IMG/VR virus record: IMGVR_UViG_3300009169_000027
Location: 1-54,297 of that record
Length of the DNA stretch: 54,297 nt
Direction: 5' to 3' (one strand)
Source: a virus
Lineage: Duplodnaviria; Caudoviricetes
Numbering within the stretch: position 1 is the first letter of the stretch; every line of letters begins with the position of its first letter. Positions 8,734-45,531 of the stretch are shown here, piece by piece. The notes below the pieces were generated by a model. The model worked only from the letters and a program-made list of their open reading frames with translations. It was not told where the DNA came from and did not search any database. A program made the translations under genes and the position numbers.

Positions 8734-8915
8734 GTTGGCTCCGGTCGCACGATGTTTTGGAGATGGTTTAGTGTAGCCCGATTTCGGACCCGCCTGAGTG
8801 TCGGTCGCTTATCGTGGGCGCTAATGTGCTGATAGGCCTCGATGACGTTTAGGTGGCTATCGACGCTCACCGTGTATTGCACGCTGCCCCGGTGTAGCGT
8901 TAGGTGTCTTATCAT
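8694..8915 (-). CDS. Hypothetical protein with CPECG motif
   Basis: Operon packing; start uncertain. Confidence 0.4.
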   Translation of the reverse strand: MIRHLTLHRGSVQYTVSVDSHLNVIEAYQHISAHDKRPTLRRVRNRATLNHLQNIVRPEPTCPECGQTIRGRK

Positions 8916-9057
8916 CGCTGATCTTTTTTGCCGCCTCCTGCATTTGATACAGGCAGGCACGCAGGCAGTTGATCTCGGACTCCATCTCGGCAAACTCCTG
9001 CGACAGGCCGGCGCAGTCCGCGGCCTTGCGCAGTTCTTTCAGGTCGGTGTCGGTCAC
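8857..9057 (-). CDS. Hypothetical coiled-coil protein
   Basis: GTGA overlap with the upstream ORF. Confidence 0.45.
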   Translation of the reverse strand: MTDTDLKELRKAADCAGLSQEFAEMESEINCLRACLYQMQEAAKKISDDKTPNATPGQRAIHGERR

Positions 9058-9140
9058 GCCACCGCCGCGATCGTGTACAGGAGAAAGAGAGTCGCGGCGA
9101 TGACGACAAACGTCATCCAGTAAACGTCGCCGTTTTTCAT
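9054..9140 (-). CDS. 28-aa membrane peptide
   Basis: MKNGDVYWMTFVVIAATLFLLYTIAAVA; ATGA overlap with the folE stop. Confidence 0.5.
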   Translation of the reverse strand: MKNGDVYWMTFVVIAATLFLLYTIAAVA

Positions 9141-9850: not shown

Positions 9851-10653
9851 TCTTGTGCTCCGAATAGGTGGCTCTGATAGGACACGCGGAATCCCCACAA
9901 CAACGCAACCTCCGCTGCGTAGCGGTAATTGCGCGCCGTGGCCTCGCGGTCAATTAGTGTGTCGTCCCAGATGCTGGCGACCTCGCCCTCGCGTGGTTCG
10001 CGCTTGTAGACCGTCTGCCCGGACACGTACACCGGGATGCCGTGATGATCGAGGTCCTGCGCGTACGCTGGCAGCTGCCTGTACTTGCCCTCGAACGCCA
10101 GCACGACCTTGAAGCTGAGTTTGCCGTAAGGCACGCGGAACCAGTCGTCGTTCGGGTCGCTGTAGCGTTCTTTGTTGTGCGGTATCTTTGGGCTCACGAC
10201 GTAGTGGATACCGGTGCGCTCGCTTGCCTTGTCGCCTTTGAGCAGCAGCCCGTTCGTTTCGACCTGGCAAACGTGCGGCGGCGTCGTCACCTCGTTCATG
10301 CTCCTGGCCAGGGTTGCGATGGCGTCCCACTGCAGCAGCGGCTCACCCCCGGTGAACACGACAAGGTTGTTGCGGTTGTGGGGACTGCCGTATGACAGAC
10401 GATCGGCGAGCTCCCCAAACGTCCAGACCTTTCCCTCGTCCAAATTGAACCGGGTATCGCACCACGGGCAGTCTTGCTTGGCCCCGATGTTGCACCCAGC
10501 CAAGCGGACAAACGTGGCCGGCCATCCAGCGAACGGTCCCTCGCCTTGGAACGTGTCGAAGACGCGCGTTACGAGGAGCTCGTTTGTCTTCAGGTGTCTG
10601 TAGTCCCGCGAACTGGCGTTGCGGTCGACGTTGATCGGAATCACGGCAGCCAT
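9847..10653 (-). CDS. queE: 7-carboxy-7-deazaguanine synthase (radical SAM)
   Basis: FDTFQGEG, FVRLAGC, CNIGAKQDCPWCDT, VFTGGEPLLQ, VETNG, VSPK. Confidence 0.92.
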   Translation of the reverse strand: MAAVIPINVDRNASSRDYRHLKTNELLVTRVFDTFQGEGPFAGWPATFVRLAGCNIGAKQDCPWCDTRFNLDEGKVWTFGELADRLSYGSPHNRNNLVVFTGGEPLLQWDAIATLARSMNEVTTPPHVCQVETNGLLLKGDKASERTGIHYVVSPKIPHNKERYSDPNDDWFRVPYGKLSFKVVLAFEGKYRQLPAYAQDLDHHGIPVYVSGQTVYKREPREGEVASIWDDTLIDREATARNYRYAAEVALLWGFRVSYQSHLFGAQE

Positions 10654-11105
10654 CCCTTGAACCCGGCATCGGGGTTCCGATAGATCGCCGAGTTCTTGTC
10701 GTTCTCGATCGCCTCGACGCTGATCACCCAGCACCGGCCTTTCGTCTTCTCCCGCAGGTGCGCGTCTGTGAAACCGCACACCATCTCGGCAGAGCCTTCC
10801 ATCCCCACCCCGAACGGCATGAGACGGACGGTGGCGGCACCCGCTGCCTCGAGCTCCCGGAACTGGGGCAGCAGCGGATCGTCCGGCATCAGGAGCAGCG
10901 TGTGGTCGAACATGTAGTCCAGCCAATCGCGCAGCCAGTGGAGGTCCCCGAAGTCAACGGCGAACCCGCAGGCGTCCAGCGTCTGCGCCCCGAACTCGAA
11001 TCGGAAGCTGCGGCTGTAGCCGTGAACGAGCGCACAGTTGCCGTCGTGCCGGTGTTGTCGGTGGGCGCACGGTAGGTTGCGGTAGGTCTTTGTGCTGGTG
11101 TGCAT
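10641..11105 (-). CDS. queD: 6-carboxytetrahydropterin synthase
   Basis: CAHRQ...CALVHGY...VDFGDL...FDHTLL. Confidence 0.92.
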   Translation of the reverse strand: MHTSTKTYRNLPCAHRQHRHDGNCALVHGYSRSFRFEFGAQTLDACGFAVDFGDLHWLRDWLDYMFDHTLLLMPDDPLLPQFRELEAAGAATVRLMPFGVGMEGSAEMVCGFTDAHLREKTKGRCWVISVEAIENDKNSAIYRNPDAGFKGWLP

Positions 11106-11136
11106 GTATGAATCTCCAGTATCGGAAAATTTGGCC

Positions 11137-11225
11137 CTGGTGCGCTTCCGGGCCGGGGTGGGTAGGGTAGGGTGGACTAGGGTGCGATCGGCGCACCTTG
11201 CGCAGCCTGGCGTGCCCCAGCCCCC
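11137..11225 (+). repeat. Dispersed ~90-bp element, copy B
   Basis: Same motifs and spacing as 3575-3663. Confidence 0.65.
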
Positions 11226-11932
11226 CTAATGACTAGCGGATCATCCACACCGGCGCGGGCAAACCCCTCGGCCCGCAGAACGCAGGCATGGCACTCCCCG
11301 CAAGGCGGGAATTTCCCGGCGTAGCAGGTGTGGCTGACGGCCAGCGCCTCGCGCCCGAGGTCACCGTGGTTCATCGCGAGCCGCACGGTGTCGTCCTTGT
11401 TCAGGTACAGCAGCGGCGCGTGGATGCGGAACGCCCGTGCCGAACCGGGGCGAAACAACCCGAGCGCCTCGTTGATCATGTCCTCCGTCTTGTGAATGAA
11501 GATGGGGGTGCAGTCCGGATAGTTGGCGTTGTCGTTGGCGCACACGCCGGTCATCAGGTCGTAGCAATCCAACGCAAGGGCGTGGTTCGCTGCGACCAGC
11601 AAGAAGAATGGGTTGCGCAGCGGCACAAACGTTAGCTCAACGCGGTCACCGATCGTGGCCTCCATCGACGCGTGGTCCGTGTATGTCTCGAGCTTCTGTG
11701 TCATGTCCACGAGCGGGCTGCGCCCGAGCAACAGGCCGCGCACGTTCACGACCTTGTGGGAGTCCACCTGGCACAACTTGGCGACTTCTCGAGCGGCCTC
11801 GAGTTCGAGCTGGTGGCGCTGCCCGTAGTCGAACGTAATGGCGTGGACTCTCTTGTACGTCGAACGTGCCTCGAGCAGGCACGTTGTGGAATCCTGGCCG
11901 CCCGATAGGACGACCATGATCGATTCAAGCAT
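11177..11932 (-). CDS. queC: 7-cyano-7-deazaguanine synthase (stand-alone, no GAT domain)
   Basis: LSGGQDSTT, FDYGQRH, TFVPLRN, YPDC, HTCY...CGECHACVLR; RBS AGAAAGG. Confidence 0.95.
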   Translation of the reverse strand: MLESIMVVLSGGQDSTTCLLEARSTYKRVHAITFDYGQRHQLELEAAREVAKLCQVDSHKVVNVRGLLLGRSPLVDMTQKLETYTDHASMEATIGDRVELTFVPLRNPFFLLVAANHALALDCYDLMTGVCANDNANYPDCTPIFIHKTEDMINEALGLFRPGSARAFRIHAPLLYLNKDDTVRLAMNHGDLGREALAVSHTCYAGKFPPCGECHACVLRAEGFARAGVDDPLVIRGAGARQAAQGAPIAP

Positions 11933-12024
11933 GGTGGGGACCTTTCTTTGAAATACTGGGGATGGCTCGTCGGTGCCCTTGTGAGGCTTGCGGGTGCCGT
12001 TGCCCACCCGTCCTGCCGCGGACG

Positions 12025-12648
12025 TTAGGCCGTCGCGGTTTTCTTGGCAGCCTTCTTGGCAGCCTTCTTCTCTTCGGCCAGCGCGGCTTTGGTGGCCTCG
12101 GCCTGGCTCGGGCGCGGGAAGTTCACGCCGTTGTTGCGCGCCCAGACGCCGCACTGGGTGACGATGGTCGAATGGTTCAGCTCGCGGGCCTCGAGCTTCT
12201 CGATCAGTTCCTTGCGGCTGGTGGTGCCGGCCTTGATGCCTTCGATGTTCTTGTCGAGAAAGGCGTGAATCTGGGCGACAGACCCCTCGGGCTTACGGAA
12301 CGCGGTTTCGGTTGGCATTTCTTTCTCCATGTTGATTGATGGTGACGATTGTTCAGCCGTGTTGGGACTCGACTGCCCGTTCAGTATAGACCGAAGGACA
12401 CGAATCGCACTCCCTCCAAGTGGAATCATTTTCTTCGCAGCGTCGTCTTTCGTGTAGCGATGGGCGAACTGCATCGCGGTCATGGCGGGCCACGGCTCGA
12501 ACTCGCGTTCGAAGTCGCGCGTGTGCATTTGCATTGTGGTGAGTTGGCCTCCGTTCACTCCGAGGTAATGGGTGAGACTGTGCCCGATGCTGAACACGAG
12601 CACGATGTTGCGATTGCGATTGCGGGCGAGGTAGGCGTCCACGATCAC
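12025..12648 (-). CDS. Two-module protein; C-terminal HTH-like domain with Lys/Ala tail has its own in-frame start at 12318
   Basis: AAGGAGG before GTG 12648; GGAG before in-frame ATG 12318; tail KKAAKKAAKK. Confidence 0.6.
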   Translation of the reverse strand: MIVDAYLARNRNRNIVLVFSIGHSLTHYLGVNGGQLTTMQMHTRDFEREFEPWPAMTAMQFAHRYTKDDAAKKMIPLGGSAIRVLRSILNGQSSPNTAEQSSPSINMEKEMPTETAFRKPEGSVAQIHAFLDKNIEGIKAGTTSRKELIEKLEARELNHSTIVTQCGVWARNNGVNFPRPSQAEATKAALAEEKKAAKKAAKKTATA

Positions 12649-26976: not shown

Positions 26977-27522
26977 ATGGCCACCACGACCCCAAGGAAG
27001 AAGACCCAGCCCCGGCTCGCCGACCAAACGCCGAGGCCGATACCCCCGTCTGCGGGACAGACCTCGGTGTTGCGCGCGGTGGACATGCCCCTGCACCAAG
27101 TGCAGGAACTGGCGTCACTGGGGTTGACAACGGAACAGATTGGGTACTTCTACGGGCTCCACCCGTGGTCCGTGGAACTGTACCGGCGCCAACGCCCGGA
27201 GTTCAACGAGGCGCTGGAGCGCGGCCGATCGGTGGGCATCCAGCACGCTGCCGCCGCCCTGCGAGGCCAGATTAACTCAGGCAACATCGCAGCGATCATC
27301 TTCTACCTCAAGTCGCGCGGTAAGTGGCGCGAGGTCAATTCCATGGAAGTCACCGGCAAGGATGGTCAGCCGCTGGCGTTCGAATCCAAGACCGACAAGC
27401 TCGACCTGTCGGTCCTGGCCGAAGCGGAATTGATGGCGATCCTGGGGATACTCAACAAGGCGGTGTCGCCTGTTGAAACGGCCCCCGCAACTGGTGACAC
27501 GGACAACGAAAGCGCGTCGTGA
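26977..27522 (+). CDS. terS: Terminase small subunit
   Basis: HTH-like N-terminus; PEFNEAL...AIIFYLKSR..W...EVTGKDG; overlaps terL. Confidence 0.8.
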   Translation: MATTTPRKKTQPRLADQTPRPIPPSAGQTSVLRAVDMPLHQVQELASLGLTTEQIGYFYGLHPWSVELYRRQRPEFNEALERGRSVGIQHAAAALRGQINSGNIAAIIFYLKSRGKWREVNSMEVTGKDGQPLAFESKTDKLDLSVLAEAELMAILGILNKAVSPVETAPATGDTDNESAS

Positions 27523-29003
27523 GCGTAGCGGCCGAATACGTTCGCCCGGAGTTGTTCGCAGCGCTGGGGGACCCGTTAACGCTCCGCCGCAAGATCAACA
27601 TCGAACTCGAGCGCCGATCGCTGCAGGGTAGCCTGCACGCGTACACGCGCGCGGCGTGGGCCTGGATTGAGCCTGGCACGCCGTTCATTGACGGCTGGCA
27701 CCTGGGAGCGATCAGCGAGCACCTGCAGGCGGCCCACGATCGGCAGATACGGAATCTCGTCATCAACATGCCGCCGCGGCACATGAAGTCGATCTCGGTG
27801 AGCGTGGCGTGGCCGACGTGGTCCTGGACCCGGAACCCGCGAACGAAGTGGGTGTTCTCCAGCTACAGCGCCTCCCTGTCGATTCGCGATTCTGTCAAGT
27901 CGCGTCGCCTGCTCAGCAGCGCGTGGTACCAGCAGTTCTGGGGCAACCGGTTCACGATGTCCACGGACCAGAACCAGAAGAGCCGCTACGAGAACGACCA
28001 AACCGGCTACAGGATCGCGACCTCTGTCACCGGCATGATGACCGGTGAGGGCGGCGACTTCATCGTGGTGGACGATCCGCACAACGTGGTCGCGGCGGAA
28101 TCGGCCCTGCAGCGGATGGAGGTTCTGGACTGGTGGGACCAAGCGATGTCCACCCGTTTCAACGACCCGAAGACGGGCGTGCGCGTGCTGGTGATGCAGC
28201 GCCTGCACCAGAAGGACTTGACCGGTCACGTGCTGCAAGAGCAGGGGTGGGACCACTTGATCCTCCCGGCCGAGTACGAGAAGACGAACCGCGTTACGAG
28301 CCTCGGATGGCGCGACCCGCGGAAGGAGGACGGCGAGCTGTTGTGGCCCGAACGGTACGGCCCGAAGGAGCTCGGGGACCTCAAGTCGCGGCTCGGCAGT
28401 TACGGCGCAGCAGCGCAGCTACAGCAACGCCCAGCGCCGCGGGAAGGCGGCATCGTCAAGGTGCAGTGGCTGGGTAGCCGCTACCGCATCCTGCCGCTGC
28501 GCGAGGGACCGAAGATCGAGGTGCGCCGTGTCGTGCAGTCCTGGGACACGGCGAAGAAGGCGGACGAGCGGAACGATTACTCGGTCTGCACTACGTGGTT
28601 CGAGACCGATACGCACCACTACCTCGTTGACGTGTACCGCAAGAAGCTCGAGTTCCCCGAGCTCAAACGCGCCGTGACCGATCAAGCGGCCAAGTGGAAT
28701 CCGCAGGCGGTGTTGATCGAGGACGCCGCTTCAGGGACAAGCCTCATCCAGCAGCTGCGGTCGGACACGCTGCTTCCGGTCATCGCCATCGGAACGGGCG
28801 GCCTGTCCAAGGAGGTTCGTCTCGAGGCCGTAACACCGACGATCGAGGCGGGACGTGTCCTGCTCCCCGAGGAGGCACCGTGGGTGGCCGACTACGTTGG
28901 GGAGCTCACCATGTTCCCGATGGTTGAAAACGATGACCAGACGGATAGCACCTCTCAATATCTCAATTGGGCGGCTAAGCCGGCTGAGGTTTTTATTGGG
29001 TGA
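27519..29003 (+). CDS. terL: Terminase large subunit
   Basis: INMPPRHMKS, IVVDDPH, MQRLH, SWDTA, IEDAASG, NDDQTDS. Confidence 0.95.
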   Translation: MSVAAEYVRPELFAALGDPLTLRRKINIELERRSLQGSLHAYTRAAWAWIEPGTPFIDGWHLGAISEHLQAAHDRQIRNLVINMPPRHMKSISVSVAWPTWSWTRNPRTKWVFSSYSASLSIRDSVKSRRLLSSAWYQQFWGNRFTMSTDQNQKSRYENDQTGYRIATSVTGMMTGEGGDFIVVDDPHNVVAAESALQRMEVLDWWDQAMSTRFNDPKTGVRVLVMQRLHQKDLTGHVLQEQGWDHLILPAEYEKTNRVTSLGWRDPRKEDGELLWPERYGPKELGDLKSRLGSYGAAAQLQQRPAPREGGIVKVQWLGSRYRILPLREGPKIEVRRVVQSWDTAKKADERNDYSVCTTWFETDTHHYLVDVYRKKLEFPELKRAVTDQAAKWNPQAVLIEDAASGTSLIQQLRSDTLLPVIAIGTGGLSKEVRLEAVTPTIEAGRVLLPEEAPWVADYVGELTMFPMVENDDQTDSTSQYLNWAAKPAEVFIG

Positions 29004-34424: not shown

Positions 34425-34628
34425 ATGAAATGCCTCTACGATCACGACGCCATCCAGCGCGAAACGGTCACACGTCTTCGACAATGGTTTGCTGGCGAAG
34501 CAGCCATTGTCGAAGCTGAAGTGAGGCAACGGTTACGGGAACTGGACGCGCGGCTAATTCGCGACGAAGTTCAAAAGATGGCGTTCACAAAAGGAGCACG
34601 ACATGTCCGCAATGACGAACTGGCTTGA
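34425..34628 (+). CDS. Hypothetical protein
   Basis: Operon packing. Confidence 0.4.
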   Translation: MKCLYDHDAIQRETVTRLRQWFAGEAAIVEAEVRQRLRELDARLIRDEVQKMAFTKGARHVRNDELA

Positions 34629-35076
34629 AAATAAACTGGTTGACTGGTTTTTCCGGGGGCAAGCACTCGGGGTTACGGGGGCCTCCGCGGGAGCGGGCTC
34701 CGGCCCAACGAACCTCTACTTCGCACTGTTCACGGCAGCGCCCTCCGATACCGGCGGCGGAACCGAGGTGAGTGGCGGCGCGTACCAGCGCGTGAACGTC
34801 GCTGCGTCAACTACGAACTTCGACAACACGCAGCAGGCCAACACAACGGCCGTGTCGTCGGGCACGACAGGCACGACGCGCAATAATATCGGCATAACGT
34901 TCCCAGCGCCGTCGGGGGCTAACTGGGGCACGATCACGCACTTCGCAATCTTCGATGCTTCGACCACTGGCAATATGCTGTTCTGGGGTGCGCTGACGGC
35001 GAGCAAGGTTGTCAACGACGGCGACGCCGCCCCAACGTTCGCACTGAACGCGTTCTCGCTCCAGCTCGACAACTAA
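34603..35076 (+). CDS. Fibre-associated virion protein
   Basis: LYFALFTAAP.D.GGGTEVSGGAYQR...ITFP...WGTITHFAIFDA..GNML; precedes the giant fibre gene. Confidence 0.65.
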   Translation: MSAMTNWLENKLVDWFFRGQALGVTGASAGAGSGPTNLYFALFTAAPSDTGGGTEVSGGAYQRVNVAASTTNFDNTQQANTTAVSSGTTGTTRNNIGITFPAPSGANWGTITHFAIFDASTTGNMLFWGALTASKVVNDGDAAPTFALNAFSLQLDN

Positions 35077-35103: not shown

Positions 35104-38100
35104 ATGGCAATCTCCTACGTCGGCAAAGGCACGTTCGCTGGTAACGCGGGCGCGTTGACGCTGACGATGCCGACGCACGTCGAAGACGACCTGCTACTCG
35201 CGTTCATCCACACGGCGAATCAGGCTATCGCGATTTCGCCGGTAGACGGCTGGAAAGAGGCGCCGAGTAGTCCACAAAGCACCGGCACCGCCGCCGCGGC
35301 CGGCGGTGTTCGGTTAACGGTCTTCTACAAGTTTGCCAACACCAGTGTCGAAAGCAGCCTAGTCACTACCGATAGCGGCAGCGTCCAGTCGGGCATCGTC
35401 GTCGCGTATCGCGGCGTCGACATGGAGAACCCGTTTGACGTTACGGCGGGCAGCACGCAAGCTGCGACGACTTCGATGGTGTGGCCGGGCGTCACAACGA
35501 CGAAGGGCAACTGCTGGATCGTTCACGGTTGCGCGCAGGATACTGATGCAGGCTCCACCGCCACGTCGGGTACGCCGACGAATGGCAACCTCAGCTCGCT
35601 GACGGAGCGCCACGATCAGACAGTAAACACCGGGGCCGGCGGCGGTGTTGTAATCCTTGACGGTCTCAAGGCGGCAGCGGGCGCCACTGGCAACACGACC
35701 TCCACCGGAAGCACCTCGGTCACGCACGCTTATGTGACGCTAGCCATTGCACCGAAGCCGATTCGGTTGCGCACGCCGGTCCACTCGCTATCGCTCGTCA
35801 CGACGGTCGACACGCCTCTCGCGAGCATCGATGTTAAGCTGATGTCCAGCGGCTCGCGTGCGGTTATGACGCGGTATAATTCTGCGACACCAGCGGTCTA
35901 CTACTCGGACGATGGTGAAACGTGGACCTCGGCGACAGGACCGGGCCAGCAAATTGAAGCAATAGGATACGCGGCCGGGCGTTTCCACTTGTTCGACGTC
36001 AACGGCGATGTTTACAGCAGCGCCAATGGTGCGACAGGTTGGGAGTGGAACACTGCCTTTACAGCAGCCGGCACGAACTTTGGCGGCATCAGCAACGACA
36101 AACACCCGTCGCGTGCAACGGCTACGTGGGGCTCGTATTACGCAGTCACAACAAACGGCACAACGTGGACTGAGTATTCAGGGAGCGGCGGGCCAGGCGT
36201 TAGTGATGGCGACCTGACGTATCACGCGCCGGTATCGAACTATTGTCGCTATTCCACAGACGGTGGCGTGAGCTGGACGCAGGGCGATTACGCGCCCGCG
36301 TTCAACACCGTCATGGACTTGGTCTATGGGAATGGGCGTTGGGTCGGCTTCACCAATGCTGGCGGCGATTATCGCGCGTATAGCACCACTGTCGCGGGGC
36401 GCTGGGGCGAGTACGCCACCATCGCCGGCACCGACTATTACACGCACTCCGCATACGTCAACGGTTGTTTCGTTGCGGTTGAGCGATTGGACTCCGCAAG
36501 CAAGGCTATCCTTTCGCCGAACGGCTTGGATTGGGACACCGTAACGTTGCCGGTCACGGCGGGCTACTGGCGCGACGCTACAGACCTCGGCAATCGATAT
36601 ATCCTCGCGTCTGACACAAAGGTCCACACACTCGAGGTCGTAACGACCTCACCGGGGTGCGTTTGCACGATGACCGGGACGTTGACGAGCGTCCCGATTG
36701 AGGGGCTGGTTGGGCGTTTGGAGTGCTCGGTAACGGCCACCGCCACACTCGTCAACATCAACCCGATCGAGGTTGCACGCGGCGGCGCGAACGTCGCAAT
36801 AGTCACGCGCCCATCGAACGAACAGGCCGGCGTAATCGTGGGGCGGCAGGACATCCTGCTCCACGCTTATGACTCAAGCCAGACGGCGTATGTATCTTCA
36901 AACGACAACGGCGAAACATGGACGCATCGAACTGGTCCCGGTGTTGCGTTTGCGAATGATTCCGTTGGCTATTTGCCGCTGGTCGGGAAGTTCTACATTC
37001 GATCGTCGTCGTCATTCCTGTCATCGAACGGCATCGACTGGACCGACATCGGGAGCACACCGACAGGCATCTATTCGCTTGGCACGACCTCGGACGGGAA
37101 GCTGTTCTACACGTCCAACACGTTCCCGCGGATCGTGTACTCAACGAACGGCTTGGACTGGATCGATGCTGGTGACATCTCCAATCAGATATTGGCTGGC
37201 GAGAACAGCATCGCATTTGACGGAGTTAGCCGCTACGTCATCATCGGCTGGAACGACTTCTGCTTGTGGACTGATGATCTCAGCGCGGGCTGGACCTCGG
37301 CCGATATGCTGTACACGACAGTGCAGCAGTTTGCATTTGGACAGGGCCGATTCATTGCAGGTTGTGACTCGCAAGCTGACAAGCTCCAGTGGAGTGTGGA
37401 TGGCGAATCGTGGACGGCGATCGACATGCCGTCTACCGGTCGCGTCTGGCGCTCGGTTGCGTATGACCCGATCGGCGAAGCGTTCATTGCAGCCGGCGGA
37501 AACGACGCTGGCTGGGCAATCTCGCTGGACGGTGGCGTTACGTGGACGGTTCAAGAAGACACCGTTACGCACCTCATCAACCCGTCCGCCGTTGACGGCA
37601 CAGTGTTCATTGTCCGCGGCAACGGCAACACCGATCTACGAAAGCTGAAGCCTCGCCGCGGCGAGTGCATTAGCACGATGAAGGGAACGCTGACCGATTC
37701 CAGCGGCGAAATCTATGGCGCGCTCTACAGTCGCACGGAAGTAACAGCAGCCCTCACGACGCAGATTCTGCTCAACGCCAGCGCAGCATCCGTTGTCACG
37801 GCGACCGCTTCGTTATCGACCGGGCTCCGCACCAGTCTCTCCGCAGCGATCGCCGTCGCGCGTACCGCCGCACCATCGCTGTCCGCCGCGATTCTGCAGG
37901 CGCGCACAGCGACGGCCAGCATCACTGCTGCGATCCGAGCAGCGCAGACACGTACCACGTCGATCGATTCCGCTGTCCGTTTGGCGCGCACGAGTACGAC
38001 AAACATCGGCGCCGCACTCCTCCAGGCACGCTCCGCTACCGCCGCGCTGGGTGCCGCGATCCGCGCCGCACGGAACGCTTCGGTGGCACTCGGCGCTGTC

Positions 38101-40131
38101 GTCGTTACATCGCGATCAGCGACAGCTGACATCAACGCCGCGGTACGTGCGGCGCGCACCAGCACAGCAAACGTCAGCGCCGCGATTCGTGCTGCACGTA
38201 CCGCTGTCGCGACGCTTGACGCTGCGGTACGCGCCGCACGTACTTCGTCGGCCTCGCTCGACGCCGCGATCGACGCACCGAAGACGTTGAGCGCCGCTGT
38301 CGGTGCTGCTGTCCGTGTCGCGCGATCGGCAACTAGCACTATAGACGGAGCACTACAGCTCGCGCGTTCCGCTTCCGCGAGCCTCGATGCCTCAATCAAT
38401 GCCGCCACGCAGCAGACCGCGACGGTATCGATTGGCGCAGCGATCCGCCTGGCGCGCTCCGCCACCGCCTCAGTCGACGCGGCTGTCCGTGCGGCGCGCT
38501 CAGCCACCACTTCGATTGACAGTGCAGTCCGAGCCGCGCGCTCCGCCACCACTTCGATTGGCGCGGCGGTTCGCTTCGCCCGCAGTTCCGCGTCGTCTGT
38601 TAACGCTGCCGTTCGAGTCGCGCGCTCTGCCGCGTCGACCATCGACGCAGCGATCCGGGCACCGGCCACAGCCGCGGCAAACTTGGGCGCTGCTGTACGT
38701 TCGGGGGCGCAAGCTACCTCCACCATTGGGGCGGCGATCCGGGCGCAGGATTCGGCCACGGCATCGCTGGAGGGGGCGGTCCGGTACACTGCGACGATCA
38801 CCGCCGACCTGGGCGCCGCGGTCGTCCTTCGTCGCGCCGCCGTCGGCGAGCTAACGGCAGCGATCGTTGCCCCGCTTTCGGCACAAACCTCGATCGGCGC
38901 GTCCGTCCTTCAGGCGCACACCGCGAGTGCATCGCTCGGCGCGTTGGTGTTGGGTGGCTTCACAGCTTACGCAACACTCGACGCCGCCGTCCGCCACGCT
39001 CGCCCAGCCACGGTTTCGCTGAGTGCGGCAATCATCCACTACGGATCGACGCTGGCTACGGCATCGGTCGACGCTGCGATCGTGTTGGCGCGCAGCAGGA
39101 CAGCATCGCTCGGCGCCGCGATCCGCGCCGCGCAGTCTCTGTCCGGCGAAATCGACGCCGCGATCAGCCTCGCGCGATCAGCCGCGTCGAGTGTGGGTGC
39201 TGCGATTCAGCAGGCGCGATCGAATACTGCGTCTATCGACGCCGTCGTCCGTCGCACCGCCTCCGCGTCCGTAGACCTCTCCTCCGCGATCGCCGCTGCA
39301 CGTACCGTTACCGCGGCAATCGATTCGGCAATACGTGCGCCGCACACGGATGCACTATCGCTGAACGCCGTTATCAGCGGCGGCACAGCCGTCAACGCGA
39401 CACTAGACGCGGCGATCCTAGCCGCACGTTCGGCGACCGCCGCGCTGGGTGCGGCGGTCGCCGTTGTCCGTTCAAGCACCGCTAACCTGGGGGCCGCGGT
39501 CGCCGTTGCGCGTACCGCAAGCTCTACCTTACAGGCGGCGGTGCAGCTTCGGCGCACTGTGATCGCAGACTTCTCCGGCGCGATCCTGCAAGCCCGATCG
39601 TCGTCGGTTGCACTGTCGTCCGCGATCCTGCAACGGCAGCAGGTTGTCGCGACGTTGGGTGCATCCATCGCCGCAGGCTACACCGCCTCTGTTTCGATCG
39701 ACGCGGTAGTGCTTGGCGGAACGTTGGCGCAGGTATCGCTCACCGCTGCGGTACAGGAGGCGCGGTTCGCTTCCGTATCGCTGGGCGCCGTTATCTCGTC
39801 TTCGTTGACGACGTTAGTGACCGCCGATATCGACGCAATGATTTACGTGGCAGGTGCTGCGACAGCGTTGATGAGCGCTGCGGTCTTGCACCGGCCATCC
39901 AATGCTGCAAGCCTTAACGCTTACGTCCTTCCGGAAGGTTCTCTACATCGCACGGTCTCTGCTTCGTTCGATGCGGCGATCGATACCGAGTGCCACACGA
40001 AGGTTCATCGTGTCCTCGACGCCGTAACTGTTCCGCGCACCGACGACACGGCGCTGGTTCAACGGTCACTGGACGGTATCATCGTGCGCAGAGTAAGCGA
40101 CGCCGCGCAGATCAAAGACTCGTGCCAATAA
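35104..40131 (+). CDS. Giant fibre/adhesin: BNR(Asp-box)-like propeller regions plus 14-aa repeat shaft
   Basis: Repeated S.DG.TW boxes (YSDDGETW, YSTDGGVSW, SLDGGVTW); ~50 tandem ART.TAS[IL].AA[IV].. units. Confidence 0.7.
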   Translation: MAISYVGKGTFAGNAGALTLTMPTHVEDDLLLAFIHTANQAIAISPVDGWKEAPSSPQSTGTAAAAGGVRLTVFYKFANTSVESSLVTTDSGSVQSGIVVAYRGVDMENPFDVTAGSTQAATTSMVWPGVTTTKGNCWIVHGCAQDTDAGSTATSGTPTNGNLSSLTERHDQTVNTGAGGGVVILDGLKAAAGATGNTTSTGSTSVTHAYVTLAIAPKPIRLRTPVHSLSLVTTVDTPLASIDVKLMSSGSRAVMTRYNSATPAVYYSDDGETWTSATGPGQQIEAIGYAAGRFHLFDVNGDVYSSANGATGWEWNTAFTAAGTNFGGISNDKHPSRATATWGSYYAVTTNGTTWTEYSGSGGPGVSDGDLTYHAPVSNYCRYSTDGGVSWTQGDYAPAFNTVMDLVYGNGRWVGFTNAGGDYRAYSTTVAGRWGEYATIAGTDYYTHSAYVNGCFVAVERLDSASKAILSPNGLDWDTVTLPVTAGYWRDATDLGNRYILASDTKVHTLEVVTTSPGCVCTMTGTLTSVPIEGLVGRLECSVTATATLVNINPIEVARGGANVAIVTRPSNEQAGVIVGRQDILLHAYDSSQTAYVSSNDNGETWTHRTGPGVAFANDSVGYLPLVGKFYIRSSSSFLSSNGIDWTDIGSTPTGIYSLGTTSDGKLFYTSNTFPRIVYSTNGLDWIDAGDISNQILAGENSIAFDGVSRYVIIGWNDFCLWTDDLSAGWTSADMLYTTVQQFAFGQGRFIAGCDSQADKLQWSVDGESWTAIDMPSTGRVWRSVAYDPIGEAFIAAGGNDAGWAISLDGGVTWTVQEDTVTHLINPSAVDGTVFIVRGNGNTDLRKLKPRRGECISTMKGTLTDSSGEIYGALYSRTEVTAALTTQILLNASAASVVTATASLSTGLRTSLSAAIAVARTAAPSLSAAILQARTATASITAAIRAAQTRTTSIDSAVRLARTSTTNIGAALLQARSATAALGAAIRAARNASVALGAVVVTSRSATADINAAVRAARTSTANVSAAIRAARTAVATLDAAVRAARTSSASLDAAIDAPKTLSAAVGAAVRVARSATSTIDGALQLARSASASLDASINAATQQTATVSIGAAIRLARSATASVDAAVRAARSATTSIDSAVRAARSATTSIGAAVRFARSSASSVNAAVRVARSAASTIDAAIRAPATAAANLGAAVRSGAQATSTIGAAIRAQDSATASLEGAVRYTATITADLGAAVVLRRAAVGELTAAIVAPLSAQTSIGASVLQAHTASASLGALVLGGFTAYATLDAAVRHARPATVSLSAAIIHYGSTLATASVDAAIVLARSRTASLGAAIRAAQSLSGEIDAAISLARSAASSVGAAIQQARSNTASIDAVVRRTASASVDLSSAIAAARTVTAAIDSAIRAPHTDALSLNAVISGGTAVNATLDAAILAARSATAALGAAVAVVRSSTANLGAAVAVARTASSTLQAAVQLRRTVIADFSGAILQARSSSVALSSAILQRQQVVATLGASIAAGYTASVSIDAVVLGGTLAQVSLTAAVQEARFASVSLGAVISSSLTTLVTADIDAMIYVAGAATALMSAAVLHRPSNAASLNAYVLPEGSLHRTVSASFDAAIDTECHTKVHRVLDAVTVPRTDDTALVQRSLDGIIVRRVSDAAQIKDSCQ
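37730..39990 (+). repeat. Coding tandem repeat, 14 aa (42 bp) period
   Basis: ARTATASITAAIRA / AQTRTTSIDSAVRL / ARTSTTNIGAALLQ / ARSATAALGAAIRA ... Confidence 0.85.
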
Positions 40132-40147
40132 ACTCAGGAAGAAACAA

Positions 40148-43006
40148 ATGAAGATCGACAAGCGGAACATGGCGACTAGCGACGCTTACTTCGTCACGAA
40201 CAACAGCGCCGCGTGGACAGATTGGAAGATCACGGACGCAGTCGCTGACGGGTACAAGTCGAACCCGTGGGTCTACCGCGCCATTCGTTTGATCACCCAA
40301 AGCGCCTCAACTGTTCCTTGGGTCGTGTTCGACAAGGAGATGAGTCCGCTGTGGGACCACCCACTGTCGCTTCTCTTTGCGAAACCGAACCCGCACCTGA
40401 CACGACAGCAGGTGTTCGAGATGGTTGTGTCGTGGCTCGAGCTCGCCGGTAACGGGTACTTCAAGAAAGTGATCCTCCGCGGCAGGACCGTGGAGTTGTG
40501 GCCGATCAGCCCCGACCGACTCGCACCCATCCCAAGCAAGGACCCGACGCTATTCATCGACGGCTATATCAGGAAAGCCGACGGCGGCGGCGACATCCGG
40601 GACCCGGAGTACAACGCGCAGACGGTAATCCACATTCGATTCATCGACCCCGCGAACCCGTATCTCGGCATTGCTCCGCTGTCCGCCGCCGCGCGCACTG
40701 TGGACCTCGACAATTCACAGCTCGACTGGAACACGTCGACAATGCAGAACCGCGGTGTTGTCGACGGTGTCTTTACGTTCAAGCGACCGCTGGATGCGCC
40801 GCAATCCAAGAACATCATGGAACGTATCATGGAGAAGTTCAGCGGCAAAAAGAACGCACGCAAACCGCTCGTGATCGGCGAGGACGCGATGTACACGCGG
40901 CTGTCCCTTAGCCCGACAGAACTCGACTTCTTGGAATCGAGGAAGGACAACCGTTTGGAGATACTGAGTGTCTACGGGGTCCCTCCACAACTGGCCGGCG
41001 TACAAGAGTCCAGCACGTTCAACAACTTCACAGTGAGCCGCCGTGTCTTCTGGGAGACCACGATACTGCCCCTGCTGGATACGATGAAGGATGCGTTCAA
41101 TCACTCGTTCTCCGATGAGCTCGCGCCGGGCCTCACACTCGGCTACGACACAAGCGACGTGGCGGCGTTGAAGGACAACGAGATCGAGAAGGCCAAAGTC
41201 GGCAAGGTCTATCACAGCATGGGGGTGCCGGTGAGTGTCCTTAACGACAAGCTGAGTCTAGGCCTGGACGAGTACGACGGCTGGGACGAGTCCGGTAGCG
41301 AGGCTCCACCGCCGGGGGCTCCACCCGATCCACCAGACGACGACACGGAGGGCGCCCGGTCTTTTGAATTGGTCCCACTCGAGCAGCGGAGTGTGGACAG
41401 CGAAATCAAGCTGCGTGACCGTTTGGTTGAGAAGTTCGCGGCATCACTGTACGCTCAGTTTCTGGCGGAGCAGGGTACCGCTGTCTTTAATGCGATCGAA
41501 GCAGGTCGGGACCCGGTTGTTACGGCAGCCTCTTACGACAGTGAACTGACCGACGTTATCGAGGAGGTCTACATAACTGTTGCCCTCGAGATGGCGAAGA
41601 CCGTGGCGCGCCCGAGGAGGTCGAACTGGTTCCTGATCGAGCTACGTGAGAACACACCGTACGAGGAGGAACTGCTAGCAACGATCAAGGCTTCGCTACA
41701 GGATGAGCTAATTATCCTGAAAGAAAAGTCCTTCATTCAGGAAGCCACCGCACAGTTCATTATCGACCAGACAGCGTATGGAGTTGCGAACGGCTGGCCA
41801 CCGAGCAAGATTCAACAAGCGATCGTGGACACTGGCGCGTTCTCTCCCGAACGCGCGTTGCGTATTGCACGCACAACGGCCGGTGCCGCAACCGGCGTGG
41901 GCCAACTGGCTGCGGGGTCGACGTCTGGTGCCACTCACAAGAAATGGTTGACCAGCGTTGCCAACGTACGGGACGCGCACGTCGCCCGCGACGGCGAAGT
42001 TGTGCCGATCGACAATCGTTTCAGCTCGCAGGTGGGGGGTCAGGGTCCGCGTTATCCGTGCGACCCCAGTGTCGCGGCCGCCGACCGTATCAACTGCCGT
42101 TGTTTCATGTCGTTTGAATTCCGGGTAGCAGCGACGACTCCGGCCACAACCCCCGCCCCGGTCAACACCTCTGAGGCAGCACTGCTCGCAGCGAAGAAAG
42201 CTAAGAAGAAAGCGGCTAACTCCGCCGCCTGGGCAAAGAAGAAAGCAGCCAACGCCGCAGCGAAGGCGGCGCAGAAAGCCGCGCTGGCCGAGGCCGCTGC
42301 AAAGAAAGCAGCCGCGGACGCCGCAGCGAAGGCGGCACAACTCGCCGCAGCGAAGGCGAATGTCCCGGCGCAACTAACGCCGCGGCAAGCAGCCACCCTC
42401 AAGGTGCGCCCGCGTTCATTCGACAGGGTTAAGCAGGTGGTGCCGCATTCGCAGATCGCCGACGAGGTAATCAAGACATCATCGGACAAACAGCTAAAGG
42501 CTCTTGAGTCGTACAAGGGCGGCGGCTACAGTCAGATCAATAAGTACCTGAGAAAGAATACGGCCGTTCAGTCCAGCAGCATTGACGAAGCCGAAACCCT
42601 AAAGGAACTGTTCAAGACAAACAAGTTCACGACGTTGCAATCGGACGCCGTTCTCTATCGCGGGGTCAACAAGCAAGCGCTGGACGCGATGGGTATCGAC
42701 CCGAACGACTTTGACGACTTGATCGGCGCGGAGCTTACCGATCGCGGGATAATCTCCTCATCGTTTGACAAACAAGTCGCTGCCAACTTTGGCAGTCAGG
42801 ATGGGGCACTGTTCATCATTGAAGGAAAGGCTGGCGATCCGGGGCTCTTTATCGATAAGATGGGGCTAGGGAATCACTCGGGTGAAGCTGAGTTGATCTT
42901 CCCTCCGGGATCGTTCGTGATCAAAAGCGCAAGCATGGAGGCCTATGACACGTACGGCTACTCGAAAGTTCTAACGATCCGCATCGGCGCATTCAGACCA
43001 CTTTAG
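40148..43006 (+). CDS. Portal - MuF (head morphogenesis) - ADP-ribosyltransferase fusion
   Basis: HK97-type portal (NPWVYRAI, LELAGNGY, YLGIAPL, YGVPPQL); Pro/Asp linker; MuF (KKWLT..VRDAH...INCRC); Ala/Lys linker; VIP2-like ART (YSQINKYLR, LYRG, ISSS, EAE). Confidence 0.85.
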   Translation: MKIDKRNMATSDAYFVTNNSAAWTDWKITDAVADGYKSNPWVYRAIRLITQSASTVPWVVFDKEMSPLWDHPLSLLFAKPNPHLTRQQVFEMVVSWLELAGNGYFKKVILRGRTVELWPISPDRLAPIPSKDPTLFIDGYIRKADGGGDIRDPEYNAQTVIHIRFIDPANPYLGIAPLSAAARTVDLDNSQLDWNTSTMQNRGVVDGVFTFKRPLDAPQSKNIMERIMEKFSGKKNARKPLVIGEDAMYTRLSLSPTELDFLESRKDNRLEILSVYGVPPQLAGVQESSTFNNFTVSRRVFWETTILPLLDTMKDAFNHSFSDELAPGLTLGYDTSDVAALKDNEIEKAKVGKVYHSMGVPVSVLNDKLSLGLDEYDGWDESGSEAPPPGAPPDPPDDDTEGARSFELVPLEQRSVDSEIKLRDRLVEKFAASLYAQFLAEQGTAVFNAIEAGRDPVVTAASYDSELTDVIEEVYITVALEMAKTVARPRRSNWFLIELRENTPYEEELLATIKASLQDELIILKEKSFIQEATAQFIIDQTAYGVANGWPPSKIQQAIVDTGAFSPERALRIARTTAGAATGVGQLAAGSTSGATHKKWLTSVANVRDAHVARDGEVVPIDNRFSSQVGGQGPRYPCDPSVAAADRINCRCFMSFEFRVAATTPATTPAPVNTSEAALLAAKKAKKKAANSAAWAKKKAANAAAKAAQKAALAEAAAKKAAADAAAKAAQLAAAKANVPAQLTPRQAATLKVRPRSFDRVKQVVPHSQIADEVIKTSSDKQLKALESYKGGGYSQINKYLRKNTAVQSSSIDEAETLKELFKTNKFTTLQSDAVLYRGVNKQALDAMGIDPNDFDDLIGAELTDRGIISSSFDKQVAANFGSQDGALFIIEGKAGDPGLFIDKMGLGNHSGEAELIFPPGSFVIKSASMEAYDTYGYSKVLTIRIGAFRPL

Positions 43007-43016
43007 GAAGACAAAC

Positions 43017-43196
43017 ATGCCAACGACAACCAAGAAGAAACGTCTCCAGCGTTTCGTTAGTAAGCCTGGGGAAATGACGCTTAAACGTTTGACACCAGAA
43101 GAACTCGCGGCCAGAGCCAACGAGGCCGAAGAAACGCGACTGTCCCGACTGAACGATCTACAGGGACTCGCACTGAAGAAAGCCAGTGGTTCCTGA
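43017..43196 (+). CDS. 59-aa protein after the ART domain; candidate immunity/inhibitor (not in ORF track)
   Basis: AGGAAG RBS; MPTTTKKKRLQRFVSKPGEMTLKRLTPEELAARANEAEETRLSRLNDLQGLALKKASGS. Confidence 0.6.
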   Translation: MPTTTKKKRLQRFVSKPGEMTLKRLTPEELAARANEAEETRLSRLNDLQGLALKKASGS

Positions 43197-43266
43197 TTTG
43201 GACAGTCCCGCGCTAACTCAAAGAAAGTTTGTTCCTCATTTCGTTCGTTAATGTAGAATCACCGGA

Positions 43267-44304
43267 GTGAGCACCATGAAAATCGAACATCGCAGCACGA
43301 GCGGGGAAATCAGGGCCACCACCGATGAGGGAATCATCGAGGGTTACATCGCCGTTTGGGACACTGTCGATTCCTACGGCTCGATGTTTCAGCGCGGCGC
43401 GTTCACCAAGACACTGCGCGAACGCGGTAGCCGAATCAAGGTTCTGTGGAACCACCAGCAGGAAGTCATCGGAACGCCGATCGAATTGCGCGAAGATGAC
43501 CGCGGTGTTTTCTTCCGTGGGCAGCTTGTCCTCAGTGTCCCGAAGGCACGAGAGACGTTTGAGTTGATCAAAGCCGCGGCAATCGATACGTTCAGTTTCG
43601 GCTTCCGGGCGGTCAAAGACAAGTGGGTCAACAACCTCCGCGTGATCACCGAAGTCATGCTGATGGAAGTGTCCCCAGTTATCTTCGAAGCGAACAGCGA
43701 GGCTGTCATTACAGGAGTTCGGGCTATGCCAGCAGAACAACGCGCTCAGCAATACCAGGAAACGTACTCCGCTTATGAGTTGGGCCGCCGCGGCGACCTG
43801 ATTCTCTCGGCGTTGTTTCGAACCCTCGATGACATTTGGTACGGCGGGTCCGCCGGCGATCAAGTCAGGGAACTCGTGGCGTCGGCCATCACAGAATTCT
43901 CCAGCATGTATTCGGCCTATACGGACGAACTCGTTACGCTGAGTCAGCGCGACCTGCGCGGGTCACCCGTTCAGATCGCGACGCGCAAGTACCTCGCCGA
44001 GAAGAACATGACGCCGGAAGCGCTCGCCGCCAACACGTCGTTGACTCTCAGCGAGGTCACGTCACTGCTCGTGGGGACACCGGCAGTCGACATGAGGAAA
44101 CTGGGTGAACTCCCAGACACAGTGCGCGAGGCGATCAACGTCGCGCGCGCCGCCAAGGTCGAGGCCTTGTGCGATGAATTGCGTTCTGGTTTGGAGCCAG
44201 CGGAAGTCGCCCGCATTCGCGGCCTTTTGCCCTCCGAGGAACCCGACGTCTCCACCGAAATTCTGAGTCGGCTGATGGCGTTTCGCGCCAGCCTGACTTC
44301 CTGA
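43267..44304 (+). CDS. HK97-type prohead protease with long C-terminal extension
   Basis: IEGYIAVWD, GAF, LWNH, FSFGF, EVSPV..AN. Confidence 0.9.
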   Translation: MSTMKIEHRSTSGEIRATTDEGIIEGYIAVWDTVDSYGSMFQRGAFTKTLRERGSRIKVLWNHQQEVIGTPIELREDDRGVFFRGQLVLSVPKARETFELIKAAAIDTFSFGFRAVKDKWVNNLRVITEVMLMEVSPVIFEANSEAVITGVRAMPAEQRAQQYQETYSAYELGRRGDLILSALFRTLDDIWYGGSAGDQVRELVASAITEFSSMYSAYTDELVTLSQRDLRGSPVQIATRKYLAEKNMTPEALAANTSLTLSEVTSLLVGTPAVDMRKLGELPDTVREAINVARAAKVEALCDELRSGLEPAEVARIRGLLPSEEPDVSTEILSRLMAFRASLTS

Positions 44305-44331: not shown

Positions 44332-45531
44332 ATGGACATGAACAAGCTCATCGAGGAAATCAACCGCGCAACGACCGAGCTGCGGTCGTACGTCGATCGC
44401 AAGATCGAGGAGACGTCGAAAACCGGCGCTCCCGATCCGACGACTGTCGCCGCGATCGAGAAGGCGAACGCCGACATCACCGAGCTGCGCAAGCAGTTGG
44501 ATGACGCCGCGAAGGCGGCCCAGCGCCCGGCCAACAACGCCGGTGCCCCGATCGACAAGGAGACCGAAGTTCGCCAAGCCGCGTTCGTCAAGTTTCTGCG
44601 TTATGGTGTTGGAGAGAACGGGCGCTCGCTGATGACCCCGGAGGAGCAGCGTGCGCTGTCCAGCATCGCCGACGCCGATGGTGGTTTCCTCGTCCCGGTG
44701 GCCTGGGAGAACACTGTCCTCATGGCAGCGTACAACGACGCCGAGGTGCGGCCCGTTTGCCAGGTCGGGACGACCGGACGTGACCGCGTCTACATGCCGT
44801 CGCTGAAGAAGCCAGCCGTGGCGTGGGGCGTGGCAACGCTGGCGGTGTCGCCGCAGGACCTGACCGCTGGCGGCGAAACGCTGACGATCTTCGACCTGAA
44901 GGCCCTCACGCTGATCCACAACAACACGCTGGACGATGCCGAAGCCGATATCTGGGGCGAACTCAACGGGGCCTTCTCGCGCGCCGTGGCGGAAGCCGAG
45001 GACTCGGCGTTCGTCACTGGTGACGGTGCAACCTCCCCGCAGGGTCTCATGTCGTCCGCTGGCGTGCTGGCGAACTTCACAATTTCCGGCGTGGCCGCGG
45101 CGCTCAGCGATACGACCCACAACGGCGTCGACGCGCTGATCACGATGCTGCAGGCGCTGAAGAAGACCTATCGCCGCAACGCGACCTGGGCCATGAACAG
45201 CACGACCGAAGGTATCGTGCGCCAGCTGAAAGACGACAATGGCGTCTATCTGTGGCAGCCCCCGGTGCAGGCAGGCTCCCCGGCTCTCCTGCTGGGCCGT
45301 CCGCTGATCAACCCCGAAGGCATGGCCGACATCGGCGCTGGTGCGTTCCCGATCGCACTCGGCGACTTCCGGAGCGGGTACAAGATTCGCGACCGCGCCG
45401 GCATCACGGTCCAGCGCCTGATCGAACGTTACGCCGAATACGACCAGACCGGTTTCATCGTGAAGCGTCGCACCGGCGGCAAGGTCGTGATGCCCGAGGC
45501 GTTCCGCGTCCTGAAGATCGCGGCCTCCTAA
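44332..45531 (+). CDS. Major capsid protein (HK97 fold, N-terminal delta domain)
   Basis: Coiled-coil N-terminus; DGGFLVP; GDG...PQGL; LKDDNGVYLW; LLGRP; GDF. Confidence 0.95.
   Translation: MDMNKLIEEINRATTELRSYVDRKIEETSKTGAPDPTTVAAIEKANADITELRKQLDDAAKAAQRPANNAGAPIDKETEVRQAAFVKFLRYGVGENGRSLMTPEEQRALSSIADADGGFLVPVAWENTVLMAAYNDAEVRPVCQVGTTGRDRVYMPSLKKPAVAWGVATLAVSPQDLTAGGETLTIFDLKALTLIHNNTLDDAEADIWGELNGAFSRAVAEAEDSAFVTGDGATSPQGLMSSAGVLANFTISGVAAALSDTTHNGVDALITMLQALKKTYRRNATWAMNSTTEGIVRQLKDDNGVYLWQPPVQAGSPALLLGRPLINPEGMADIGAGAFPIALGDFRSGYKIRDRAGITVQRLIERYAEYDQTGFIVKRRTGGKVVMPEAFRVLKIAAS

Follow-up and report, generated by a model that had tools for sequence, protein, structure and literature searches.

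A portal-MuF-ADP-ribosyltransferase fusion followed by a candidate inhibitor gene in the complete genome of an apparently lytic phage

The window analyzed here is the whole of IMG/VR virus record IMGVR_UViG_3300009169_000027, a phage genome of 54.3 kb that has direct terminal repeats and is rated 100% complete. Its open reading frame (ORF) at 40148-43006 encodes a protein of 952 amino acids (aa) in which a portal domain, a MuF head-morphogenesis module and an ADP-ribosyltransferase (ART) domain are joined in one chain. We consider it fairly likely that the sole portal chain of this phage carries MuF and a C-terminal ART in an exchangeable slot, and that the enzyme is silenced by a 59-aa protein, released, ejected and modifies host proteins early in infection. 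Enzyme cargo on a portal is a rare yet already described class, which the parts of the literature available to us place in print since 2012-2017, and does not form a new category. As a new lead, we consider most useful the prediction that this apparently lytic phage encodes an inhibitor paired with its ART.

The portal gene encodes a three-domain fusion

A preliminary description of this DNA had read the ORF as a fusion of portal, MuF and ART domains. The layout of the protein is as follows.

40148..43006, plus strand: whole ORF, portal-MuF-ART fusion; ATG start, 952 aa plus stop
40148..41302, plus strand: HK97-family portal domain, aa 1-385; Pfam PF04860, RcGTA portal match in PDB
41303..41347, plus strand: linker 1, Pro/Asp-rich, aa 386-400; contains PPPGAPPDPPDDD
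41348..42127, plus strand: MuF (SPP1 gp7-like) head-morphogenesis module, aa ~401-660; Pfam PF04233 core at aa 539-653
42128..42457, plus strand: linker 2, aa 661-770; a Pro/Thr/Ala stretch, then Ala/Lys-rich (~aa 676-738)
42458..43003, plus strand: ART domain of the VIP2/C2/C3 type, aa 771-952; Pfam PF03496, R-S-ExE signature

All three families score above their Pfam cut-offs in hmmscan: Phage_portal (PF04860) at aa 41-350 (E 1.6e-59, 202.1 bits, cut-off 39.1), Phage_Mu_F (PF04233) at aa 539-653 (E 1.3e-8, 36.0 bits, cut-off 29.6) and ADPrib_exo_Tox (PF03496) at aa 773-922 (E 3.9e-15, 56.1 bits, cut-off 23.4). Judged by these scores, the three-family match on ORF 40148-43006 is far beyond chance. 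The landmarks named in the preliminary description (PPPGAPPDPPDDD, INCRC, the Ala/Lys stretch, LYRG, ISSS and EAE within one 952-aa frame) all lie where it had placed them, and its three-part reading holds, as does the R-S-ExE signature, which is real and conserved in four fusions.

When the complete genome was searched, the portal, MuF and ART models each matched exactly once (41.9 bits for PF04233 and 59.9 bits for PF03496), and no match to an SPP1-type portal was obtained. Because ORF 40148-43006 is the genome's only portal, every portal subunit is synthesized with the cargo. Membership in the portal family suggests a dodecameric ring at one vertex, and since this is the sole portal in a complete genome, the ~12 copies of the enzyme at the portal vertex that the preliminary description had proposed can fairly be expected at synthesis.

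A single match to phrog_2662 (“portal protein”) covers aa 12-659 (E 3e-88), indicating that the portal and MuF parts together represent a catalogued fused family; the MuF module also matches phrog_2468 (aa 530-658, E 1.7e-27). In the PDB, the portal part matches by phmmer the HK97-family portal of the Rhodobacter gene transfer agent (RcGTA; 6te8/6tba, E 2.2e-33, aa 27-342). Linker 1, in which PPPGAPPDPPDDD occupies aa 386-398, is weakly conserved among relatives. The INCRC motif near the end of the MuF module (aa 648-652, nucleotides (nt) 42089-42103) contains four residues, I648, C650, R651 and C652, that are invariant in an alignment of four portal-MuF-ART fusions. No tandem DNA repeats were found in the Ala/Lys part of linker 2. 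An “RSF[ED]” string located before MuF (~aa 405) and before the ART (~aa 756) was considered as a common cleavage tag and dropped, being absent before the ARTs of the other three fusions (P0002, P0030 and P0200, described below).

The C-terminal domain has the signature and predicted fold of an ADP-ribosyltransferase

The R-S-ExE signature consists of R838 in LYRG (codon at nt 42659-42661), S868-S870 in ISSS (nt 42749-42757) and E913-A-E915 (nt 42884-42892). Y837, R838, G839, S870, E913 and E915 are invariant in the four triple fusions (the window ORF, P0002, P0030 and P0200), whose ART parts are only 21-25% identical despite the kept signature. The catalytic signature thus appears intact, which argues for a working enzyme. 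An ExE motif points to arginine as the acceptor residue, and we classify the domain as an arginine-type R-S-ExE mono-ADP-ribosyltransferase, with an arginine specificity presumed from this motif.

A phmmer search of the PDB with the last 212 residues gave the ART toxin Lmo0066 of Listeria (8za7_B, E 3.2e-5) and also BECa of C. perfringens, SpvB and VIP2. In the alignment with Lmo0066, LYRG, the Ser-rich motif and EAE of the window protein fall on LYRG, STT and EAE of the toxin. An AlphaFold2 (AF2) model of the ART built from a four-row alignment reached a predicted local distance difference test (pLDDT) of 63.6 and a predicted template modeling score (pTM) of 0.59; single-sequence AlphaFold gave a pLDDT of 37.3 and was unusable. 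Foldseek with the alignment-based model returned 116 PDB matches at E ≤ 0.001, and every row shown is an ART, in agreement with the fold proposed in the preliminary description. The top match is again 8za7_B (E 1.6e-10, template modeling score 0.61), followed by C2-I, VIP2, iota Ia, C3larvin, ExoS, CDTa and C3. Sequence identity to these best sequence and fold matches (Lmo0066, C2-I, VIP2, iota Ia, C3) amounts to 14-20% only. The model also matches the T4-like Alt protein of Aeromonas phage phiAS5 (E 5e-7) and, in BFVD, two uncultured-phage proteins annotated “Phage portal protein, HK97” (1201 aa) and “Portal” (739 aa). An Alt-like PHROG family, phrog_802, gives a weak match at aa 683-841 (E 3.5e-5).

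Relatives of the ART domain alone were found neither among proteins of 523-1666 aa nor among proteins of 116-371 aa, the latter even at E ≤ 10, and the 50,697 records of the cultured-phage collection contain no detectable sequence similarity to it.

The frame shows no indels in independent assemblies

Run X1, the possible source sample, yields one contig that spans 40000-43400 and differs by 2 substitutions, which both fall on third codon positions and read as synonymous. Contigs from three runs on other samples (X2, X3 and X4) are at least 99% identical in nearly all pieces, with no indels listed. These runs cover the ORF in pieces only and leave some bins uncovered, which carry no weight. 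One X2 contig bridges the portal-MuF junction (40000-41481), and pieces from X2 and X3 bridge 41930-42354 and 42349-42582, that is, most of the MuF-linker-ART region.

Because the genome is a metagenome assembly and X2-X4 cover the ORF in short pieces only, two artefacts have to be considered: loss of a stop codon, or a chimera in which assembly joined an ART gene to a portal-MuF gene. Against such an artefact stand the zero indels across four runs, the junctions bridged by X2 and X3, the same three-domain order in three proteins from other contigs, and the single portal-MuF frame in about 60 of 80 related IMG/VR loci. We therefore regard a lost stop as very unlikely and an assembly or sequencing artefact of either kind as scarcely credible, and the unbroken frame of the preliminary description stands.

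A stretch of 35 nt within the coding region of the Ala/Lys linker (42299-42333) is shared with a foreign contig in runs X2 and X3, both flanks differing. This is probably an unrelated low-complexity match.

The region behind MuF is an exchangeable cargo slot

A word-indexed homologue search returned 140 homologues, of which the best 120 were considered (119 besides the window protein). Most of these 119 are ~640-700 aa long, consist of portal and MuF only and end a few residues past INCRC. An ART is present in two of them, P0002 (881 aa) and P0030 (912 aa). The window protein is 66% identical to P0002 in the portal, 69% in the MuF core, 24% in linker 2 and 23% in the ART. This break in identity lies exactly at the native MuF C-terminus, and in all cargo-bearing forms a Pro/Thr/Ala/Lys-rich linker comes next.

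An exhaustive search gave 26,714 proteins at E ≤ 0.001 and 1,729 at E ≤ 1e-30. Six long proteins among its best 150, besides four long ones already known, were scanned with Pfam. P0200 is, by Pfam, a third independent portal-MuF-ART protein next to P0002 and P0030. Other long homologues differ in their C-termini: in P0006, P0007 and P0010, the tails of ~270-290 aa match nothing in Pfam, and an HExxH motif was read in them by eye; P0187 and P0202 likewise carry HExxH tails, by eye; P0177 shows a weak GNAT match below the cut-off; and P0214 has no cargo. Inteins occur in P0062 and P0067 inside the INCRC motif, between INC and RC, the most conserved motif of MuF; P0258 also contains inteins, together with a Hint/LAGLIDADG insert in its portal part.

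In IMG/VR, a single-protein query confirmed no close relatives, and an alignment query led to 129 confirmed ones, of which 80 loci were kept. Portal and MuF share one frame in 60 of them and are in two frames or interrupted in 13; the other 7 are portal only or cut by the contig end. The fused loci mostly stop within a few residues of the end of the window's MuF module. None of the 80 carries an ART cargo. Locus L001 has an HExxH tail, and in three loci (L071:3686-5413, L074:7215-8534 and L078:5437-7161) a separate MuF gene is fused to topoisomerase IB. The portals of these three are 44-46% identical to that of the window, with portal and MuF in two overlapping frames.

The sequences compared show the region behind INCRC of MuF to be a slot for exchangeable cargo, be it an ART, HExxH or topoisomerase IB domain, and the swapping of C-termini behind portal-MuF expected in the preliminary description is what we observe: close relatives either end past INCRC or bear other cargo. 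A conserved MuF with variable C-terminal domains (ART, HExxH tails, topoisomerase IB and a weak GNAT match) is the pattern by which polymorphic toxins are recognized.

The cultured phages contain 1378 matching records, none covering at least 80% of the query; the tblastn search used is blind to a divergent ART, so this count does not show the architecture to be absent from cultured phages. One genome each of 185,579 bacterial species yielded 16 related loci, mostly phage-sized contigs of metagenome-assembled genomes (MAGs), and none of the 16 showed an ART match or a prophage copy. Within the relatives searched, the triple fusion is rare yet recurs independently (P0002, P0030 and P0200). The preliminary description, which had called the three-way fusion unusual, was thus right as to its rarity (2 of 119 other listed homologues, 0 of 80 IMG/VR loci) and overstated the point in that the fusion recurs independently and effectors on MuF or portal are a class already in print.

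Several loci vary in other ways. A split MuF relative, L072:2481-3038, has a cargo tail of 184-186 aa with a sub-threshold PARP match (E 0.0099, 15.8 bits, cut-off 26.7), which may be a second kind of ART cargo. Inteins interrupt the MuF motif between INC and RC in five loci (L028:3225-6218, L031:3569-6127, L035:5938-8943, L040:32-3073 and L011:1957-4776). L015:316-1806 and L061:5977-7467 each have a portal ORF of 497 aa and no MuF match in the locus. Of the IMG/VR relatives, these two come closest to the window in portal (61%), protease (64%) and capsid protein (69%), which indicates that the MuF fusion has been gained or lost among close relatives.

A 59-aa protein is predicted to cover the catalytic cleft

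Directly behind the fusion gene lies one small ORF.

43017..43196, plus strand: 59-aa ORF, candidate ART inhibitor (immunity protein); starts 11 nt after the ART stop

It is preceded by an AGGAAG-like ribosome-binding site that resembles the one before the portal ORF. The encoded protein belongs to no Pfam or PHROG family, and tblastn found no match to it in the 80 related loci, which lack an ART. When its complex with aa 741-952 of the fusion was predicted, the pair scored 0.81 and the best control 0.00. A mark of 0.81 is reached by 51 of 78 solved complexes and by 2 of 108 mismatched pairs, and the score expresses model confidence, not binding. At least 93% of the contacts are shared between runs, and the partner reaches a pLDDT of at least 77. 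The predicted interface includes all six invariant signature residues (Y837, R838, G839, S870, E913 and E915): residue 13 of the partner (Phe, in its own count) contacts R838 and S870, and its residues 19-25 pair with ART residues 860-865. In this model, the 59-aa protein is predicted to sit over the catalytic cleft of the ART, which makes it a candidate immunity protein or inhibitor of the enzyme.

The spacing of genes in related loci points in the same direction. In four relatives with a cargo of at least 184 aa, 386-1543 nt separate the cargo gene from the protease gene, and this gap opens with a small ORF: 108 aa in L001 (HExxH cargo), 52 aa in L071 and 44 aa in L078 (both acidic), and 61 aa in L072. 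By comparison, L057, which has a tail of only 55 aa, shows a 56-nt gap and no small ORF, and the median gap in 56 cargo-less or intein-only loci is 44 nt (below 100 nt in 37 and at least 250 nt in 9). This context lends mild support to reading the small ORF as a partner gene.

Genomic neighborhood and lifestyle

The fusion gene and the small ORF are followed by head genes.

43267..44304, plus strand: prohead serine protease (S78); Pfam PF04586 E 2.3e-30, phrog_80 E 1e-47
44332..45531, plus strand: HK97-type major capsid protein; Pfam PF05065 E 1.5e-59

Adaptor, neck and tail-terminator genes lie downstream of the capsid gene. TerS and TerL are encoded at 26977-29003, and behind them come an endolysin and an Rz-like spanin, the latter suggesting a Gram-negative host. 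TerL adjoins the portal in relatives, whereas here it is located ~11 kb upstream of it, and the interval holds lysis genes, a Gp80-like fibre or head protein (34603-35076) and a giant ORF of 1675 aa. Genes on the minus strand encode a DNA polymerase of family A, a helicase and a processivity factor, and a 7-deazaguanine cluster is located there too; the phage also encodes its own primase.

Neither tyrosine (PF00589) nor serine (PF00239) recombinases matched in the complete genome, and neither an ADP-ribosyl hydrolase (ARH) nor a macro domain was found in it. Given the absence of both recombinase families, its own replication genes and the lack of contrary matches, repressors included, in those ORFs that were scanned, the phage looks lytic.

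A model for cargo silencing and delivery, and its alternatives

We propose the following sequence of events. Late in infection, the fusion would be made together with the 59-aa protein, which would cover the NAD-binding and catalytic cleft and keep the enzyme silent in the producer cell. Twelve fused subunits would build the portal. HK97-type portals have their C-terminus in the crown, and MuF, the Ala/Lys linker and the ART would presumably face the capsid interior. Inside the prohead, a cut would release the cargo, for which the adjoining S78 protease, acting within one of the two low-complexity linkers, is the simplest candidate. At infection, it would leave through portal and tail with the DNA, unfolding and losing the bound inhibitor on the way. 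Once ejected, the ART would act like T4 Alt and ADP-ribosylate proteins of the host as infection begins, in the service of takeover or counter-defence. Since the phage looks lytic, the enzyme would serve infection rather than competition among lysogens. Capsid orientation, cleavage, ejection, target and arginine specificity are thus steps that we infer.

Several points weigh against this model, which nevertheless seems fairly likely to us. The portal stays in the capsid, so delivery needs a release step, which the preliminary description had left out of account, and no recognizable protease site or cleavage motif was found in the fusion; the cleavage in particular is hypothetical. The ART model has only moderate confidence (pLDDT 63.6), and in the searches by protein size class and of cultured phages the domain is without a detectable close relative. 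On the side of the partner, 7 of 44 blind neighboring gene pairs also pass the complex test in the calibration of the method, and the 59-aa ORF has no relatives in the searched sets. The lack of an ARH or macro domain differs from pairs of the Bxa and Lmo0066 type. Finally, “lytic” means here the absence of two recombinase families and of matches in the scanned ORFs.

The missing cleavage site is also a reason to ask whether the ART ever leaves the portal. It could stay tethered and undelivered, acting in the producer cell before assembly or inside the head, perhaps on phage or host proteins while the particle is being built, or serving mainly as a structural plug. All portal subunits carry it, no release mechanism was found, and the Lys/Ala-rich linker could simply bind packaged DNA; SPP1 gp7 reportedly binds DNA. 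The capsid interior, however, has no NAD supply, and the invariant catalytic signature in four divergent fusions argues for a working enzyme. Activity in the producer cell would appear to be avoided, if an active-site inhibitor is made alongside as predicted, and the same slot also holds topoisomerase IB, an enzyme that makes sense in a newly infected cell. We regard a permanently tethered ART as unlikely. The opposite kind of doubt, that the domain is a decayed, non-catalytic remnant kept as a spacer or for assembly, could appeal to its 21-24% identity to the ARTs of the other triple fusions and its lack of close relatives. Yet a remnant would hardly keep R838, S870, E913, E915, Y837 and G839 together, its Pfam score lies well over the cut-off and its top fold matches are ARTs only, which makes decay highly improbable.

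A further alternative is a competition weapon that phage particles deliver or set free against other bacteria or against eukaryotic cells, as with the MuF polymorphic toxins of Jamet et al. (2017) and with Bxa (PMC5576092; PMC11699363); the small ORF would then be a classic immunity gene that shields the carrier population. The order of parts is alike (MuF, then a C-terminal toxin that varies, then a small ORF), cargo is swapped in the same way, and the fold is nearest to actin- and Rho-targeting toxins and to the Listeria ART toxin. These MuF toxins are, however, tied to temperate phages and prophages in the account available to us (PMC5576092), whereas the genome analyzed here has no integrase of either family and a full replication set, and a lytic phage has no lysogen population to protect. 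Moreover, only 16 related loci were found in bacterial genomes, mostly phage-sized MAG contigs and none with an ART. We therefore give a competition toxin little credence, and delivery of the ART into the newly infected host remains the reading that we favor.

The present case is a complete-genome example with the cargo on the portal chain itself, which fixes both its copy number at synthesis (twelve) and its place (the DNA exit) and at the same time raises the question of release. The ART and the 59-aa protein would form a small pair with which to ask how head-packaged enzymes stay harmless until delivery, and MuF-type cargo with a partner gene would not be confined to temperate phages. A broader rule is possible, although we hold it to be doubtful: the 59-aa protein would be an active-site plug, every MuF-slot enzyme, including those of lytic phages, would have its own tiny downstream inhibitor gene, and unfolding and threading from the capsid would arm the enzyme by stripping off the plug. 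Besides the 59-aa ORF, its cases would be the acidic 44-52-aa peptides encoded behind MuF-topoisomerase IB and the 108-aa ORF behind the HExxH tail. If this were true, forced unfolding at ejection would be an activation switch for phage-delivered enzymes.

Comparison with known systems

T4 Alt is a free internal protein with an N-terminal capsid-targeting sequence and is trimmed by the prohead protease; it is thus outside the portal chain, unlike the ART described here. Both are R-S-ExE ARTs. The phage head carries Alt, which enters the cell along with the DNA and whose early targets are host RNA polymerase and further proteins; for the window protein we presume packaging as well. The Lmo0066 group, to which the best sequence and fold matches belong, differs in that its members are secreted and bring delivery parts of their own; 8za7 has as its partner an immunity enzyme of the ARH type, and none was found here. 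Summaries of T4 Alt are given in PMC5512222 and PMC9206674.

The MuF phage-head route for delivery of polymorphic toxins was listed by Zhang et al. (2012). Effector domains (PBECR, 2H) fused to MuF and portal domains were described by Iyer et al. (2017; PMC5512222), and a 2022 survey of NAD-ADPr systems (PMC9503650) reports many Alt/VIP2 ARTs fused to MuF and allows for fusion of ARTs to head or portal proteins. Effectors fused to MuF and portal have been proposed to be packaged in the head and injected (PMC5512222; PMC9503650; PMC5576092). As presented in PMC5512222 and PMC9503650, these packaged effectors resemble the window protein in that enzymatic domains sit on MuF and/or portal among clustered head genes, with packaging and injection as their predicted fate. 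In the case presented here, the carrier is the one portal that a complete and apparently lytic phage genome encodes, and the gene of a candidate inhibitor follows it.

MuF toxins were defined by Jamet et al. (2017; PMC5576092), who assigned 14% of 191 as putative ARTs and proposed DNA-linked delivery. Bxa of the Bacteroides prophage PhiBxa is a MuF-ART that ADP-ribosylates arginines and is neutralized by adjacent immunity genes, an ARH enzyme and a small non-enzymatic binder, Bsi (PMC11699363); the same authors found a small ORF after each MuF toxin. The window ORF shares with these systems, as far as the two papers describe them, the order of MuF and variable C-terminal toxin, the swap pattern and the small downstream ORF. 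It differs in that muf is there a separate gene downstream of the portal, whereas here MuF is fused to it. In addition, the described cases come from temperate phages, mostly of Firmicutes or Bacteroidales, and Bxa has an ARH gene, whereas no integrase, ARH or macro domain was found in the window.

MuF fused to a VIP2-type ART is also known from lytic siphophages. Gp16 of the lytic Stenotrophomonas phage AXL1, a MuF-VIP2 protein, was detected in CsCl-purified virions by mass spectrometry with 48 peptides and 48% coverage (PMC9206674). Microbacterium phages of clusters EH and EJ, which are lytic, encode MuF-VIP2 fusions, and those of clusters EA3, EA5, EA8 and EB encode portal-MuF fusions (Jacobs-Sera et al. 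2020; PMC7302621). Portal-MuF and MuF-VIP2 thus occur there in different phages, and the available text of these two papers describes none that joins all three domains.

Other features of the genome

The ORF of 1675 aa directly upstream of the portal gene (35104-40131, plus strand) could be assigned to no family in Pfam, PHROGs or the PDB, and tblastn against the 80 related loci gave nothing; its best atlas score, 0.76, is a lead only. On the minus strand, the 7-deazaguanine-type cluster (7491-12154) consists of a queuine tRNA-ribosyltransferase (DpdA/TGT-like, 7491-8432), a QueE-like gene (9847-10926) and a QueC-like gene (11177-12154), suggesting that the DNA of this phage is modified.

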